Of a stretch of DNA of 42,980 bases, positions 14,440-20,011 are shown piece by piece. A program made the translations under genes and the position numbers. Within the stretch, counting starts at the first letter, position 1. Each line of letters opens with the position of its first letter. The notes under the pieces were generated by a model. The model had not been told where the DNA came from. It did no database searches and saw nothing but the letters and a program-made list of their open reading frames with translations. The DNA comes from a virus (lineage: Duplodnaviria; Heunggongvirae; Uroviricota; Caudoviricetes): the IMG/VR virus record IMGVR_UViG_2778261642_000006; one strand, given 5' to 3'.

Positions 14440-14646
14440 ATGACAAATCAGCAGCAAATAGAGTTCATCCTTGAGCAGATCCGAAAAATGCGAGAAAAGA
14501 ACCAGCCAGACATGATGGAAATATGGAGACGCCAGCAGGAAGAATACCGCAAGCATATTTTTGGTGAGAGAAAACAGGATGACTGGAGCCTATATGGCTA
14601 TGGCACCAGGACAAATAAAAACGGATATAGCCTTTACACATATTGA
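14440..14646 (+). CDS. Hypothetical protein
   Basis: 68 aa from MTNQQQIEFILEQ…; AGGAG RBS. Confidence 0.45.
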   Translation: MTNQQQIEFILEQIRKMREKNQPDMMEIWRRQQEEYRKHIFGERKQDDWSLYGYGTRTNKNGYSLYTY

Positions 14647-14654
14647 GGAATTCC

Positions 14655-15065
14655 ATGAAACAGACAATTTTCCTCAGGAGTAAGCAACAACAGCAAGCCG
14701 CAATCAACGCCATCCTCGCAACACCACTCGATAAAGACAAGCCAGTTACCATCCGCATTACTGACTACAAGCGCAACCTTGACCAGAACGCAAAATTTCA
14801 CGCGATGCTGGCGGATATCGCAAGTCAGGTTCAATGGTGCGGCAAATGGTTAAAACCAGAACAATGGAAGGTTTTGTTGATAAGCGGTCATGCAGTGGCT
14901 ACAAAGCAGGAAGCTGATGTTTTGCCCGGGCTTGAAGGCGAATACGTCAACATTCGCGAAAGCAGCGCGCAGATGAGTGTGAAGCGTATGGCAAGTCTGA
15001 TTGAGTACACGACAGCCTGGGCTATTGGTCAGGGTGTCAGATTTACCGACAGGAGGTATGAATGA
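14655..15065 (+). CDS. ninB: NinB recombination protein
   Basis: 136 aa from [11 protein letters not shown]…; …[27 protein letters not shown]… matches recalled lambda NinB pattern. Confidence 0.8.
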
Positions 15066-15238
15066 GGCGACAGCGACGAAGTTTCACCGACATCATCTGC
15101 GAAAACTGCAAATACCTTCCAACGAAACGCTCCAGAAATAAACGCAAGCCAATCCCAAAAGAATCTGACGTAAAAACCTTCAACTACACGGCTCACCTGT
15201 GGGATATCCGGTGGCTAAGACATCGTGCGAGGAAATGA
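15062..15238 (+). CDS. ninE: NinE
   Basis: Hand-translated 58 aa [58 protein letters not shown], near-identical to recalled lambda NinE; ATGA overlaps on both sides. Confidence 0.75.
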
Positions 15239-16224
15239 CGATGACTGCGTATTACAACGAAATAGATCCGTATGCAGCGCAATGGCTGCGTAACTTAATT
15301 GACGCTGGAGAAATTGCCCCCGGTTATGTAGATGAAAGGAGTATTGAAGATGTCACACCAGGTGATTTGCGAGGATTTACCCAGCACCACTTTTTTGCAG
15401 GAATCGGAGTTTGGAGCTATGCACTTAGAAAAGCAGGATGGCCAGACAACAAGAGTATCTGGACAGGAAGTTGCCCATGCCAACCTTTCAGCTCGGCAGG
15501 CAAAGGAAAAGGGGTTGATGACGAGCGGCACTTATGGCCGGCATTCTTCTGGCTTATTGAAAAATGCAATCCTGGCATCGTTATTGGCGAACAGGTTGCA
15601 AGCGCAGACGGCCTCGCTTGGCTCGACCTTGTACAAACTGACTTGGAAGGTGCGAACTACACCTCTGCAGGTACCGATATTTGCGCTGCGGGCTTCGGTT
15701 CTCCGCACATCAGGCAGCGATTGTATTGGGTGGCCTACTCCAACGACAAATATCAACTTTCAGCCAGAGACGCGCAGGGGAATTCAGAACCTATCTGGAT
15801 GCGTGAGACTAGCGGGATGGCAAACTCCTTTAGCGAACGATGCAACAGGTTCAACGCATTGCTACAGCGGAAAAGACAAGAGCGGAACCCCAAGAATCTG
15901 CTTGAAACTTCCCGGGACGGTGAAGCTATGTACCCATTACCGGTTAACGGCTTCTGGAGAGATGCAGACTGGCTTTACTGTAGAGATGAAAAATATCGTC
16001 CAGTTAGACCCGGCTCATTCCCGATGGTTAATGGCATTGCCAAAAGCTTGGGACGAGGCAAGTCCACACTGGGAAGAATGGCAAAGCGCAATCAAGATCA
16101 GCGAATTATTGGATATGGAAACGCAATCAATGCAGAAGTAGCAACGGCATTCGTGAAAGTTTGTATGGAGGTTGTTAATGCTTATCCCATCCCAATCCAT
16201 TCAATACCAGAAAGAAAGCGTTGA
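15235..16224 (+). CDS. DNA (cytosine-5)-methyltransferase, orphan
   Basis: Motif [12 protein letters not shown], catalytic PCQ ([16 protein letters not shown]), ENV-like region; no restriction endonuclease partner seen. Confidence 0.85.
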
Positions 16225-16354
16225 GCGGGCTTTAACGTGCGCTAACTGCGGTCAGAAGCTGCATGTGCTGGAAGTTCACGTGTGCTCCGATTGCTGCGCA
16301 GAACTGATGAGCGATCCGAATAGCTCGATGCACGAGGAAGAAGACGATGGCTAA
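16178..16354 (+). CDS. ninF: NinF
   Basis: 58 aa [66 protein letters not shown]; matches recalled lambda NinF. Confidence 0.75.
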   Translation: MLIPSQSIQYQKESVERALTCANCGQKLHVLEVHVCSDCCAELMSDPNSSMHEEEDDG

Positions 16355-16913
16355 ACCAGCGCGAAGACGATGTAACCGTAAAAGAGAAGATTTAACTGTT
16401 AAAAGGATATTTGAGTTACTAAGTTTCGATAAATCTACCGGGGTATTTAGATGGAAAGTTCCCACTCAGGGAAGGATAGCATTAAATAGTGTTGCTGGAA
16501 CTTTTGATTCCAACGGTTATTCAATGATCATGATAGATGGGCGTAGATATAAAACTCACATCTTAGTTTTTTACATAACTCATAATCGCTGGCCTGCTGG
16601 TCAAATTGACCACGTTAATGGAATTAGGACCGACAATAGGCCAGAAAATTTAAGAGAATGCCTGCCAATAGAAAATTCAAGAAATATAAGGATCCGAAAG
16701 AACAGCAAATCAGGTTGCAGAGGAGTTACTTGGCACAAACGACAGAAAAAATGGAATGTTAGGCTAGGTTTCCATGGCAAGAGTAAACACTTCGGATGCT
16801 TTGATGATCTGGAGTTAGCGGTACTAGTTGCTGAAGAAGCCCGAGATAAGTATTACGGTGATTTTTCCGGCAACGAAAGGAGCACTTATGCGAATCTATC
16901 GAAGGAAATGTAA
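16347..16913 (+). CDS. HNH endonuclease with AP2-like DNA-binding domain, apparently inserted at the ninG 5' end
   Basis: Begins MAKPARRRC (recalled NinG N-terminus) then HNH motifs (…[18 protein letters not shown]…) and AP2-like segment (…[31 protein letters not shown]…). Confidence 0.75.
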
Positions 16914-17490
16914 ATGTTGCAATGAATGGTTTATACCAAAATATCAAAATCAATATTGGTGTAATGAGATTTGTGGAACCAAGATAGCACTCGAACGACG
17001 AAGTAAAGAACGCGAAAAAGCGGAAAAAGCAGCAGAGAAGAAACTACGACGAGAGGAGCAGAAACAGAAAGATAAACTGAAGATTCGAAAACTCGCCTTA
17101 AAGCCCCGCAGTTACTGGATTAAACAAGCACAACAAGCCGTAAACGCCTTCATCAGAGAAAGAGACCGCGACTTACCATGTATCTCGTGCGGAACGCTCA
17201 CGTCTGCTCAGTGGGATGCCGGACATTACCGGACAACTGCTGCGGCACCTCAACTCCGATTTGATGAACGCAATATTCACAAGCAATGCGTGGTGTGCAA
17301 CCAGCACAAAAGCGGAAATCTCGTTCCGTATCGCGTCGAACTGATTAACCGCATCGGGCAGGAAGCAGTAGACGAAATCGAATCAAACCATAGCCGCCAT
17401 CGCTGGACTATCGAAGAGTGCAAGGCGATCAAGGCAGAGTACCAACAGAAACTCAAAGACCTGCGAAATAGCAGAAGTGAGGCCGCATGA
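16888..17490 (+). CDS. ninG: NinG (Rap-like recombination protein), N-terminus replaced
   Basis: From [15 protein letters not shown]…; from …[24 protein letters not shown]… onward matches recalled lambda NinG; AAGGAG RBS inside the HNH gene 3' end. Confidence 0.75.
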
Positions 17491-17693
17491 CGTTCTCAGT
17501 AAAAACCATTCCAGACATGCTCGTTGAAGCATACGGAAACCAGACAGAAGTAGCACGCAGACTGAAATGTAGTCGCGGCACGGTAAGAAAATACGTTGAT
17601 GATAAAGACGGGAAAATGCACGCCATCGTCAACGACGTTCTCATGGTTCATCGCGGATGGAGTGAAAGAGATGCGCTATTACGAAAGAATTGA
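17487..17693 (+). CDS. ninH: NinH
   Basis: 68 aa [37 protein letters not shown]… matches recalled lambda NinH. Confidence 0.8.
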
Positions 17694-18342
17694 TGGCAGC
17701 AAATACCGAAATGTTTGGGTAGTTGGCGATCTGCACGGATGCTACACGAACCTGATGAAAAAACTGGAGACGATAGGATTCGACACCAAAAAAGACCTGC
17801 TTATCTCGGTGGGCGATTTGGTTGATCGCGGTACAGAGAACGTCGAATGTCTGGAATTAATCACATTCCCCTGGTTCCGAGCTGTACGTGGAAACCATGA
17901 GCAAATGATGATTGATGGCTTATCAGAGCGTGGAAACGTCAATCACTGGCTGTTTAATGGCGGTGGCTGGTTCTTTAATCTCGATTACGACAAAGAAATT
18001 CTGGCTAAAGCTCTTGCCCATAAAGCAGATGAACTTCCGTTAATCATCGAACTGGTGAGCGAAGGTAAAAAATATGTCATCTGCCACGCCGATTATCCCT
18101 GTGACGAATACGAGTTTGGAAAGCCAGTTGATCATCAGCAGGTAATCTGGAACCGCGAACGAATCAGCAACTCACAAGACGGGATCGTGAAAGAAATCAA
18201 AGGAGCGGACACGTTCATCTTTGGTCATACGCCAGCAGTGAAACCACTCAAGTTTGCCAACCAGATGTATATCGATACCGGCGCAGTGTTCTGCGGAAAC
18301 CTCACATTGATTCAGGTACAGGGAGAAGGCGCATGGGCATAA
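17671..18342 (+). CDS. ninI: Ser/Thr protein phosphatase (NinI, lambda PPase-like)
   Basis: From [28 protein letters not shown]…; metallophosphatase motifs GDLHG, GDLVDRG, GNHE. Confidence 0.9.
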
Positions 18343-18851
18343 GAGAACTAAACCTCACCAAAGAGCAGCACGAGTGGCTGAATGGCTGGCTTGAACTGTG
18401 GGGAGCATGGGTTTATTCAGGTCGTCTGGAAAAGCGCATGAGCAGCGTAATAGCTAAGTTCATGGAGAGCGTAGAGCCGGGAAGAGTTATGACAAGGCCA
18501 ATGTGTAATGATGATGATGGAATGTTGATTTCTCAGGTCGTCGATTCCGTCATGTACATTGACAAGAAAGCCTTTGGCATCCTCCTCAGCTACTACGCTC
18601 ATGGTTCATCTAAGCGAGCAATTGCATCCTACTATCACGAGACTGCAAAGCCACGCAAGATGTGTGGGCGTGGTGGCGAGGGATGGAGAAAACCTTCACT
18701 GGCAACCTGTAGAAACGAAATTGACGATATCCTGAAAGCGTCATTATTTGTTTTGTACCAACCAATGAAAAATGCTTTCAAAATGCGTAAACGTGTTGAG
18801 AAAGTTAAGCATGTTGCTGTTAAAAGTCTTGACATGCAATTAGCCATTTAG
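18333..18851 (+). CDS. Q: Late-gene antiterminator Q (non-lambda Q family)
   Basis: 172 aa; directly upstream of pR'-like promoter and tR'; composition resembles the Q family of phage 21/82 type; mainly positional. Confidence 0.6.
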
Positions 18852-18858
18852 CCATAAT
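18829..18858 (+). promoter_or_regulatory. Late promoter pR'-like (TTGACA, 17-18 nt spacer, CATAAT)
   Basis: gtcTTGACAtgcaattagccatttagcCATAATat at the 3' end of Q, ~45 nt upstream of the tR' hairpin. Confidence 0.6.
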
Positions 18859-18898
18859 ATTCACATATGCTGCTGCTTTTGCATTCAGCAACCATCAC

Positions 18899-18924
18899 AA
18901 GCCCACCTCCTGTGGGCTTTTTTG
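18899..18924 (+). terminator. tR'-like intrinsic terminator
   Basis: AAGCCCAC-ctcct-GTGGGCTT followed by TTTTTTGC. Confidence 0.75.
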
Positions 18925-19045
18925 CATTCGCGTGCAATCAAAACAAGAGTCTTAGTGATATGGGCCTGAGATATGGTGGTGGAAACATCGCTCCGCTCTT
19001 GGCTGTCATATCTACGCGAACAGGCTCTATCCCTAAGGTAAAGCG

Positions 19046-19558
19046 ATGAAAGAAATAAAATTAACGCCAGAAATGGTGCTTTCTGTTGTTGATTACAATC
19101 CATCGTCAGGCGACTTTCACTGGAGATGGAGGCAGGGGAGAGAGAGGACCACTTTGACATGGAACTCTCGTTTTGCTTTCAAGAAATGCTCATCAATAAA
19201 TTCTGATGGGTATTTAATGATTATGATTAATGGTAAAGCATACCCTGCTCACAGACTGGCATGGTTGATTGTTTATGGCACCATGCCCGATGGTTTTATT
19301 GATCACATCAACAGGGTAAGAACAGATAACCGGATATCAAATCTTCGTCTTGTCACTCATTCCGAAAATATGCAAAACAGGAAAATTCAGAAGAATAATA
19401 AATCTGGATACCGTGGCGTGTCTTGGGATGCTAAGTACGGGAAATGGAGAGCAAGAATTAATGCGTCTGGAAAGTGTATTAACCTTGGATACCATGACAC
19501 TGCCGAACTTGCCGCTGCGGCTTTTGAGGCAGCCAGAATGAAATATCATACCGTTTAA
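19046..19558 (+). CDS. HNH endonuclease with AP2-like domain (paralogue of 16347..16913)
   Basis: 170 aa; shares HNH block (…IDHINRVRTDNRISNLR…) and AP2-like block (…SGYRGVSWDAKYGKWRARINASGKCINLGYH…) with the ninG-associated copy. Confidence 0.8.
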   Translation: MKEIKLTPEMVLSVVDYNPSSGDFHWRWRQGRERTTLTWNSRFAFKKCSSINSDGYLMIMINGKAYPAHRLAWLIVYGTMPDGFIDHINRVRTDNRISNLRLVTHSENMQNRKIQKNNKSGYRGVSWDAKYGKWRARINASGKCINLGYHDTAELAAAAFEAARMKYHTV

Positions 19559-19612
19559 AGATGTAAGCTGCCGTTAGTGACTCTTAAGTTGCAACGGTGG
19601 CTTTTTTTATTT

Positions 19613-19687
19613 GGGTCAGTCGTATAAAGGTCATTACGGAAGGCTGTTAACCTTCTTATCGTGGTTCGAGTCCACGCTGTCCCGCCA
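19613..19687 (+). tRNA. tRNA-like gene, anticodon GUU (Asn) by manual folding
   Basis: Acceptor GGGTCAG/CTGTCCC (1 mismatch), weak D-stem, anticodon arm GAAGG-CTGTTAA-CCTTC, T-arm CGTGG-TTCGAGT-CCACG, discriminator G, CCA. Confidence 0.5.
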
Positions 19688-19692
19688 AATAT

Positions 19693-19768
19693 GCTGGTTT
19701 AGCTCCAATGGTAGAGCAGTCGCCTTGTAAGCGAATGGGTAGCGGTTCAAGTCCGTTAACCAGCACCA
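19693..19768 (+). tRNA. tRNA, anticodon UGU (Thr) by manual folding
   Basis: 76 nt; acceptor GCTGGTT/AACCAGC, D-arm GCTC…GAGC, anticodon loop CTTGTAA, T-loop TTCAAGT, discriminator A, CCA. Confidence 0.6.
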
Positions 19769-20011
19769 TAACTGAGCCGTAGCCACTGGCTATCCTGAAT
19801 TCATCAGTGATAGTTATGCTGCGGCCTTCTACACATGACCATCGTGAAAGCGGGTGGCAAGAGGCTGCGCTAACAACCTCCTGCCGTTTTGCCCGTGCAT
19901 ATCGGTCACGAACAAATCTGATTACTAAACACAGTAGCCTGGATTTGTTCTATCAGTAATCGACCTTATTCCTAATTAAATAGAGCAAATCCCCTTATTG
20001 GGGGGTAAGAC

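Follow-up and report, generated by a model that had tools for sequence, protein, structure and literature searches.

Capture of the ninG start codon by a free-standing HNH_3-AP2 endonuclease gene, a probable homing cassette of lambdoid prophages

How does a lambdoid phage continue to make NinG when the original start codon of ninG has been taken over by another gene, and where did that other gene come from? These questions are raised by the window analysed here, the whole 42,980-nucleotide (nt) stretch of IMG/VR record IMGVR_UViG_2778261642_000006, part of which is recognizable by gene order and Pfam matches as a lambdoid phage nin/late-regulatory region. An open reading frame (ORF) within it, which we call HE1, begins as NinG and continues as an endonuclease, and ninG begins anew inside its 3' end. 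An earlier note on this DNA, made from its letters alone, had proposed that a freestanding homing endonuclease invaded a conserved phage gene. The results described below support the invasion, and homing activity is what we infer from them. The features that matter for the argument are as follows.

16178-16354, plus strand: ninF (Pfam NinF, 51.5 bits), with its ATG at 16178 placed by comparison with HK630
16347-16375, plus strand: remnant of a lambda-type (A-type) ninG, consisting of the start codon, codons 2-9 and two bases of codon 10
16347-16913, plus strand: HE1, an ORF of 188 amino acids encoding an I-HmuI-like HNH_3 plus AP2 endonuclease, fused in frame to the ninG remnant
16376-16887, plus strand: foreign endonuclease body, 512 nt, 39.1% GC, in which a start codon and a stop codon of its own are both absent
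16877-16882, plus strand: Shine-Dalgarno sequence AAGGAG of the restarted ninG, inside the HE1 coding sequence and 5 nt before the ATG at 16888
16888-16971, plus strand: replacement ninG 5' end (the B-type patch, codons 1-28), 84 nt, 29% GC
16888-17490, plus strand: intact ninG (Rap), 200 amino acids, Pfam NinG (PF05766) 283.8 bits

Alignment to lambda and to insert-free phages, as the earlier note had suggested, placed the two junctions at 16375/16376 and 16971/16972. Both were derived by hand and by codon alignment; a multiple alignment misplaced the lambda ninF/ninG 5' end against the 3' end of HE1. The 3' end of ninF that precedes the ninG-type ATG is identical to that of lambda and mEp213, and the ninF stop codon overlaps this ATG (ATGGCTAA), an overlap that probably leads to translational coupling. 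The remnant that follows (ATGGCTAAACCAGCGCGAAGACGATGTAA) matches lambda ninG at 29 of 29 nt, far beyond chance, and the similarity stops abruptly after it. The HE1 N-terminus, MAKPARRRC, is, as the earlier note had proposed, the NinG start of lambda and HK630; it is the ancestral start of the lambda-type allele, and the remnant codons AGA CGA TGT are those of the A type, distinct from the B and C alleles described below. This remnant now serves as the translation start of HE1, the body of which contains no in-frame ATG, GTG or TTG before M60. At its other end HE1 runs 26 nt into the new ninG, where 16888-16913 (ninG codons 1-9) are read in the +1 frame, and the HE1 stop codon, TAA, is formed from the ninG codons TGT AAA. 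HE1 exceeds 12 aligned relatives by about 10 residues at either end, and both extensions are derived from ninG. In an AlphaFold2 model residues 1-10 and 178-188 are poorly ordered, and the two extensions look like appendages created by the insertion. The GC content of the flanks is 49-50%, compared with the much lower values of the body and the patch.

The restart of ninG, with its own ribosome-binding site, lies where the earlier note had put it, and the sequence rejoins lambda at 16972. From this position onward ninG has 98.8% nt identity to lambda and a GC content of 49%, and residues 4-194 of its product align to positions 5-192 of the 193 positions of the PF05766 hidden Markov model. The RNA structure around the restart is in no way unusual (fold z = -0.37). 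The B patch is only 54% identical in nt sequence to lambda codons 1-32, from which it differs in length by being one plus two codons shorter, and it retains the Cys/Trp/Phe pattern of NinG N-termini. The restarted 5' end is a foreign, AT-rich replacement that arrived with the endonuclease and not a diverged remainder of the original gene. A patch of at least 99% identity was found in 538 of 5,426 complete E. coli genomes, and the endonuclease stood beside it in all 40 rows sampled across the ranking. The only candidate for an HE1-less B-type allele (H180), considered as a footprint of HE1 loss, proved to be an HE1-bearing locus with an insertion sequence, IS2, in its patch. The architecture, with capture of a start codon, a recoded 5' end that travels with the insert, and an ORF both ends of which lie in duplicated target sequence, is a neat one, if not surprising to a specialist.

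Three types of ninG 5' end could be distinguished: A (lambda), C (mEp213, VT1-Sakai and many Shiga toxin (Stx) phages) and B, which is 54% identical to both A and C. Over codons 1-46 the C type (in mEp213, 701-840 of locus L073) has 76-85% identity to lambda, and in the next 15 codons compared the two do not differ at all; two lambda codons after CK are missing from it, as they are from the B type. The A allele has six extra bases relative to both B and C within AAAAACGATGAATGCCGGG, which adjoins the HE1 junction. The C type may be naturally resistant to HE1 or may be the trace of an older exchange. A word-indexed search for the donor of the B patch, made with its first 40 residues, yielded nothing but pieces of this allele; in an exhaustive HMMER search of 1.84 billion representatives, the closest matches reached only about 54-57% in the variable part. 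Other genes have also been inserted between ninF and ninG, namely a 130-amino-acid hydrophobic ORF in E. coli R3 (1598-1990 of locus L004) and an unrelated 89-amino-acid ORF in E. coli E189 (1598-1867 of locus L005). Both sit exactly at the ninF/ninG boundary and leave the NinG start intact. The ninF/ninG junction is a hot spot for inserted genes; HE1 is not an ordinary insert of this kind, because it interrupts the coding sequence itself and carries a substitute for the part that it displaced.

The earlier note had called the remainder of the 16347 ORF an HNH/AP2-like endonuclease, and this description agrees with both profile and fold comparisons. The HNH_3 match scores 42.4 bits (Pfam cut-off 24.8). 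The AP2 match, at 22.2 bits, falls below its cut-off of 33.3, but the C-terminal part of the AlphaFold2 model (predicted local distance difference test score 86.8) superposes on the ERF1 AP2 domain (1gcc) at 1.3 Å over 51 residues and also on the TEM1 AP2 domain, so that the presence of an AP2 domain in HE1 is supported by the predicted fold despite the sub-cut-off score. The best Foldseek match of the model in the PDB is I-HmuI (1u3e), with a probability of 1.00 over 109 columns and a weak E-value of 5e-3. A sequence search of solved structures gave a marginal AP2 match alone, and I-HmuI was visible only by fold search. In a 14-member family alignment that includes HE1, residues D88, H89, N101, L102, R103 and N110 show no variation and N113 almost none; the catalytic motif of HE1 is intact. 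HE1 belongs to phrog_99, as does a second endonuclease of the window, HE2, which is described below (E about 1e-71 to 1e-73). According to PMC5714182, HNH_3 proteins with NUMOD or AP2 modules form a large group of homing endonucleases, and in the passage of PMC10448857 that cites Magnani et al. 2004 the HNH plus AP2 proteins are treated as a family of homing endonucleases that occurs in phages, cyanobacteria and protists. Relatives of HE1 at less than 60% identity, T7 gene 3.8 among them, are present in about 3,000 phage records. Between 47% and 98% identity no relative turned up among 5.8 billion proteins, the phage records or IMG/VR, and a scan of GTDB species-representative genomes returned only one planctomycete relative, at 39%.

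Such endonucleases may reside in introns or inteins. No Rfam intron family matched positions 16100-19800 at E <= 1, and an intein was ruled out, as HE1 ends in a stop codon and in a frame that differs from that of the downstream ninG. The lack of an intron match together with the change of frame indicates that HE1 is free-standing.

The flanks of the insert are 98-99% identical to the insert-free lambda and HK630, which makes this a presence/absence polymorphism at one precise site. The insert was present in just 4 of 498 phage records that match the region, corresponding to two Stx1 phages, AU6Stx1 and SH2026Stx1, and in 531 of the 5,426 complete E. coli genomes (about 10%), including O157:H7 EDL933, where the pair is annotated as HNH endonuclease and recombination protein NinG. 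The label "HNH endonuclease" is already attached to HE1 in hundreds of genomes, and about 31 genomes have two HE1 copies. The left junction and the remnant are identical in all 60 HE1 loci that were examined, 59 of which carry an intact HE1 ORF; these loci, from the database and IMG/VR, form the population sample used below. Because every HE1 copy examined has the same left junction, we conclude that there was a single insertion event into an A-type ninG, and the foreign GC content, the rarity among phage records and E. coli genomes and the common left junction together show that the arrangement is derived and not ancestral. The interpretation of the earlier note has thus withstood both of the refutations that the note itself had named. 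The phage records had suggested a link between HE1 and stx1. This link was dropped, as stx1 was found in only 3 of the 42 loci with enough downstream sequence. As a separate observation, the cassette in EDL933 is next to an IS30 remnant, ninH is missing, and the Q downstream is of the lambda type, no stx genes being present within 3 kb. What the phage database suggests, namely that HE1 goes with Stx1, therefore does not hold in general.

Eight upstream classes, with several ninF alleles or no ninF, could be distinguished among the 60 loci, together with at least five downstream classes, which differ in whether ninH and ninI are present and in the type of Q (lambda, 21 or Stx). A near-identical cassette is present throughout these mosaic backgrounds. 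Nucleotide diversity (pi) along the locus was as follows.

HE1 and patch (16359-16958): pi 0-0.012
Immediately after the patch: pi 0.02-0.04
ninG 3' end: pi 0.07-0.14
ninF: pi 0.02-0.08
Beyond ninF and ninG: pi above 0.2

The diversity of the cassette is 5-30 times below that of the adjoining ninG and ninF across at least eight backgrounds. This valley is not an artefact of sampling, because the databases searched held no more-divergent HE1 copies and because the patch, which shares in the valley, lay outside the search pattern. Of the 119 synonymous sites in HE1, 11 were polymorphic, as were 11 of the 445 non-synonymous sites, which gives a ratio of non-synonymous to synonymous polymorphism (pN/pS) of about 0.27, which shows HE1 to be under purifying selection as far as polymorphism within this sample can reveal it. 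HE1 would appear to be a recently spread, mostly functional gene with occasional decay, in agreement with what is known of how homing endonuclease genes spread and degenerate.

The interpretation that we favour, with a probability of roughly 0.68, is that HE1 is a free-standing HNH_3 plus AP2 homing endonuclease cassette that entered a lambda-type ninG once and has recently spread among lambdoid prophages. The cassette would comprise 16376-16971, that is, the endonuclease body, a functional 28-codon replacement for the ninG 5' end and a strong ribosome-binding site. In the original event, the right side was probably joined by homology and the left side illegitimately, within or beside a shared ATGTAA; with no start codon of its own, the endonuclease would have been under selection for fusion in frame to the ninG start. 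In lytic growth HE1 would be made from the N-antiterminated PR transcript, coupled to ninF translation and initiated at the old ninG start, and NinG would still be produced from the new one. HE1 would then bind through its AP2 domain and nick or cut the lambda-type ninG 5' region of an HE1-less co-infecting phage or co-resident prophage. Repair of the break from the HE1-bearing genome would use ninF plus the 29 nt on the left, ninF being the left homology arm, and ninG from codon 29 (16972) on the right, and it would copy the cassette together with flanks of variable length. The AT-rich patch, recoded so as to be without the target site, would leave carriers immune. The 84-nt patch adjoins the insert, is 46% different from the empty allele and is linked to HE1 in all rows sampled. 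On the comparison of alleles, AAAAACGATGAATGCCGGG is perhaps a candidate for the HE1 target, and a target there would explain why the remnant is always of the A type.

A further and more tentative proposal, to which we give rather less than an even chance, is that HE1 acts as an active gene drive among lambdoid and Stx prophages. According to this proposal, the lambda-type ninG 5' end is recognized, the B patch is a recoded and cleavage-immune copy, the 29-nt remnant provides both the start and the left arm, and flanking markers are co-converted. If this is true, then co-conversion would shape mosaic boundaries and the spread of ninH, ninI, Q and occasionally stx1 alleles in pathogenic E. coli.

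Several points weigh against the interpretation of HE1 as a homing cassette. The target site of HE1 need not lie in ninG, and neither protein nor genome searches found a donor lineage for the patch or the endonuclease. Literature searches found no description of the gene. The AP2 score lies below its cut-off, the polymorphism counts are small, and many carriers are clonal O157:H7 strains. Some copies are decaying: locus L069 has a 1-nt frameshift, and P83T and N101S, each in a single locus, alter invariant positions; such decay fits the homing endonuclease life cycle but also fits neutrality. Finally, ordinary homologous recombination around a recently acquired module could also give the diversity valley.

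The last of these points leads to the main alternative, which we consider unlikely, namely that HE1 is a passive mosaic module, acquired once by illegitimate recombination and since moved by general homologous recombination, with an endonuclease that is inert or cuts elsewhere. Lambdoid nin regions are highly mosaic, unrelated genes occupy the same ninF/ninG junction, and the clonality of many O157:H7 carriers and the degeneration of some copies are what such a module would lead one to expect. An inert passenger is, however, difficult to reconcile with an ORF that is intact in 59 of 60 loci, with the pN/pS ratio given above and with the conservation of all catalytic residues. A cassette 5-30 times less diverse than its neighbours is not easily explained unless it is preferentially transmitted or has spread very recently, and the exchange of exactly the 84 nt next to the presumed target for a recoded functional copy would be the hallmark of endonuclease immunity.

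A less probable alternative, which we would rank as improbable, is that HE1 is a weapon of competition that cuts rival lambdoid genomes, in the manner of marker exclusion or superinfection interference, and that its copying is incidental. Intron-encoded relatives such as I-HmuI reportedly give the genome that encodes them an advantage in mixed infections (Goodrich-Blair & Shub 1996). It is common for E. coli to harbour several lambdoid prophages, with up to six matching places per genome, and the purifying selection detectable in HE1 would be expected of a weapon as well. HE1 lies, however, in the PR delayed-early operon and should be silent in a lysogen, and so it cannot be a prophage-encoded defence. 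Beyond this, the weapon is hard to separate from homing, because cutting followed by repair yields both outcomes.

Two other explanations can be set aside. The possibility that ninF-HE1-ninG is the original order, from which lambda-type phages deleted the endonuclease, has the bare presence/absence polymorphism in its favour and nothing more; loss of the endonuclease by deletion could not restore the lambda-type 5' end, which differs from the B patch by 46%, the GC content of the insert is foreign, the insert is missing from 494 of the 498 matching phage records, and the remnant duplicates ninG codons 1-9 that are also present in the B copy, so that duplication and composition already refute it. 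Some phage HNH proteins assist terminase in cos cleavage, but an accessory role of HE1 in packaging, as in HK97-like phages, has virtually no standing, given that HE1 is of the wrong family (HNH_3/AP2, phrog_99, and not the terminase-associated PF01844 type), lies in the nin region far from terminase, and is dispensable, being absent from most close relatives.

Returning to HE1 as a homing cassette, we compared it with the closest systems that have been described. It shares with I-HmuI and the HNH_3 zf-His_Me_endon group (His-Me finger group 2; PMC5714182) the HNH_3 domain with its D-H...N...N residues and a modular construction in which the nuclease is joined to a separate DNA-binding module, in keeping with the best structural match to 1u3e. 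I-HmuI is encoded in a group I intron and has other DNA-binding modules, whereas HE1 is free-standing and has AP2; the two are about 18% identical. The HNH-AP2 family (Magnani et al. 2004, as cited in PMC10448857 and PMC5714182), which includes T7 gene 3.8 and many genes of T5-, Felix-O1- and T1-like phages, has a two-domain architecture, membership of phrog_99 and presence/absence polymorphism between similar genomes, all of which are also seen in HE1. In contrast to that family as cited, HE1 is an isolated lineage, resides in temperate lambdoid prophages and is without start and stop codons of its own. A parallel in arrangement is gene 31 of Salmonella phage epsilon34, a lambdoid/P22-like phage, in which, according to the passage of PMC2629481 concerned with it, the N-terminus of eaE is fused in frame to an HNH homing endonuclease. 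The host gene there is eaE of the early-left operon, and the HNH lineage is related to Lactobacillus phage endonucleases (same passage). A replacement 5' end for the invaded gene, such as accompanies HE1, is not mentioned in that passage. For the T4 Seg and Mob endonucleases and the homing endonuclease genes of ICP1 (PMC10448857), intronless homing has been proposed, in which the allele lacking the endonuclease gene is cut near the insertion point, site differences protect the carriers, flanking markers are co-converted, and the endonuclease genes mark boundaries of exchange. These enzymes are mostly of the GIY-YIG, T5orf172 or other HNH types and belong to virulent phages, and cleavage has been shown for several of them, whereas HE1 resides in a temperate phage and its cleavage is predicted from sequence.

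Homing endonucleases have been studied almost entirely in virulent phages (T4, T7, T5, SPO1 and ICP1), and the mosaicism of temperate lambdoid phages is usually credited to general and illegitimate recombination. The HE1 cassette is a clean and widespread case in which a selfish nuclease gene has taken over the translation start of its host gene. If HE1 cuts lambda-type ninG, it would offer a simple system for the study of homing and co-conversion between prophages with lambda genetics, and some of the turnover of alleles immediately before the Q/late-gene (and stx) region could be put down to its cutting. Should HE1 prove unable to cut, the locus would be no more than a well-resolved example of phage mosaicism.

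The window contains a second gene of this kind, HE2, in the late leader. Its surroundings are as follows.

18829-18858, plus strand: late promoter PR' (TTGACA, 18 nt, CATAAT; 11 of 12 matches in a promoter scan)
18899-18925, plus strand: first intrinsic terminator of the late leader ("type X"), an 8-bp stem followed by U6 (fold z = -3.9)
19046-19558, plus strand: HE2, HNH_3 plus AP2, 170 amino acids, Pfam HNH_3 66.1 bits and AP2 35.1 bits (cut-offs 24.8 and 33.3)
19565-19610, plus strand: second intrinsic terminator, an Sf6/phage-21-type tR', by alignment to the annotated tR' of Sf6 (fold z = -4.1)
19613-19687: tRNA-Asn
19693-19768: tRNA-Thr

The earlier note had regarded HE2 as a second copy of the same endonuclease type and as a paralogue of HE1. 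HE2 is of the same type, but with 39% identity to HE1 it is not a copy, and "paralogue" overstates the relationship; HE2 is a member of the same family that was inserted independently. Its position had been given as between tR' and the tRNAs. HE2 is indeed upstream of the tRNAs, but it lies between two intrinsic terminators, downstream of PR'. This PR' is identical to the annotated phage-21-type PR' of Sf6, and comparison with Sf6 shows an insertion of about 700 nt (18859 to about 19562) that starts straight after the -10 element of PR'. The insert brings its own leader and the terminator at 18899-18925, after which follow the remainder of the Sf6/21-type leader and tR'. E. coli WCHEC115106 has the type X leader and terminator alone, with no HE2. 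Among phages, HK629 carries HE2, whereas Sf6, HF4s and many P22-like phages do not; the leader upstream of HE2 (18855-19050) was found in 41 of the 5,426 E. coli genomes, nearly always adjoining HE2. HE2 lies between two alternative late-leader terminators, and its expression should need Q antitermination. It resembles HE1 in being flanked by two versions of one local element that have diverged from each other. The HE2 cassette pushes the phage-21-type early transcribed (qut) region about 700 nt downstream.

The other genes of the region, in order, are listed here; S, R and Rz follow the two tRNA genes.

14643-15065: ninB
15199-16224: C5 cytosine DNA methyltransferase, in the position of lambda ninC/D/E, its 3' end overlapping the start of ninF
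17487-17693: ninH
ending at 18342: ninI phosphatase
18333-18851: Q of the phage-21/Sf6 type

The C5 methyltransferase occurs upstream of HE1 in just one of the 60 loci of the sample, to which the window itself does not belong. In the O157/Stx1-type context represented by AU6Stx1, ninF has been replaced except for roughly its last 14 nt, which remain before the ninG-type ATG. Upstream of HE1, this phage has a series of ATTTCT hexamer repeats (about 2780-2815 of locus L001). In E. coli Z1323CEC0014, IS2 is found within the ninG B-type patch (97-1557 of locus L011).

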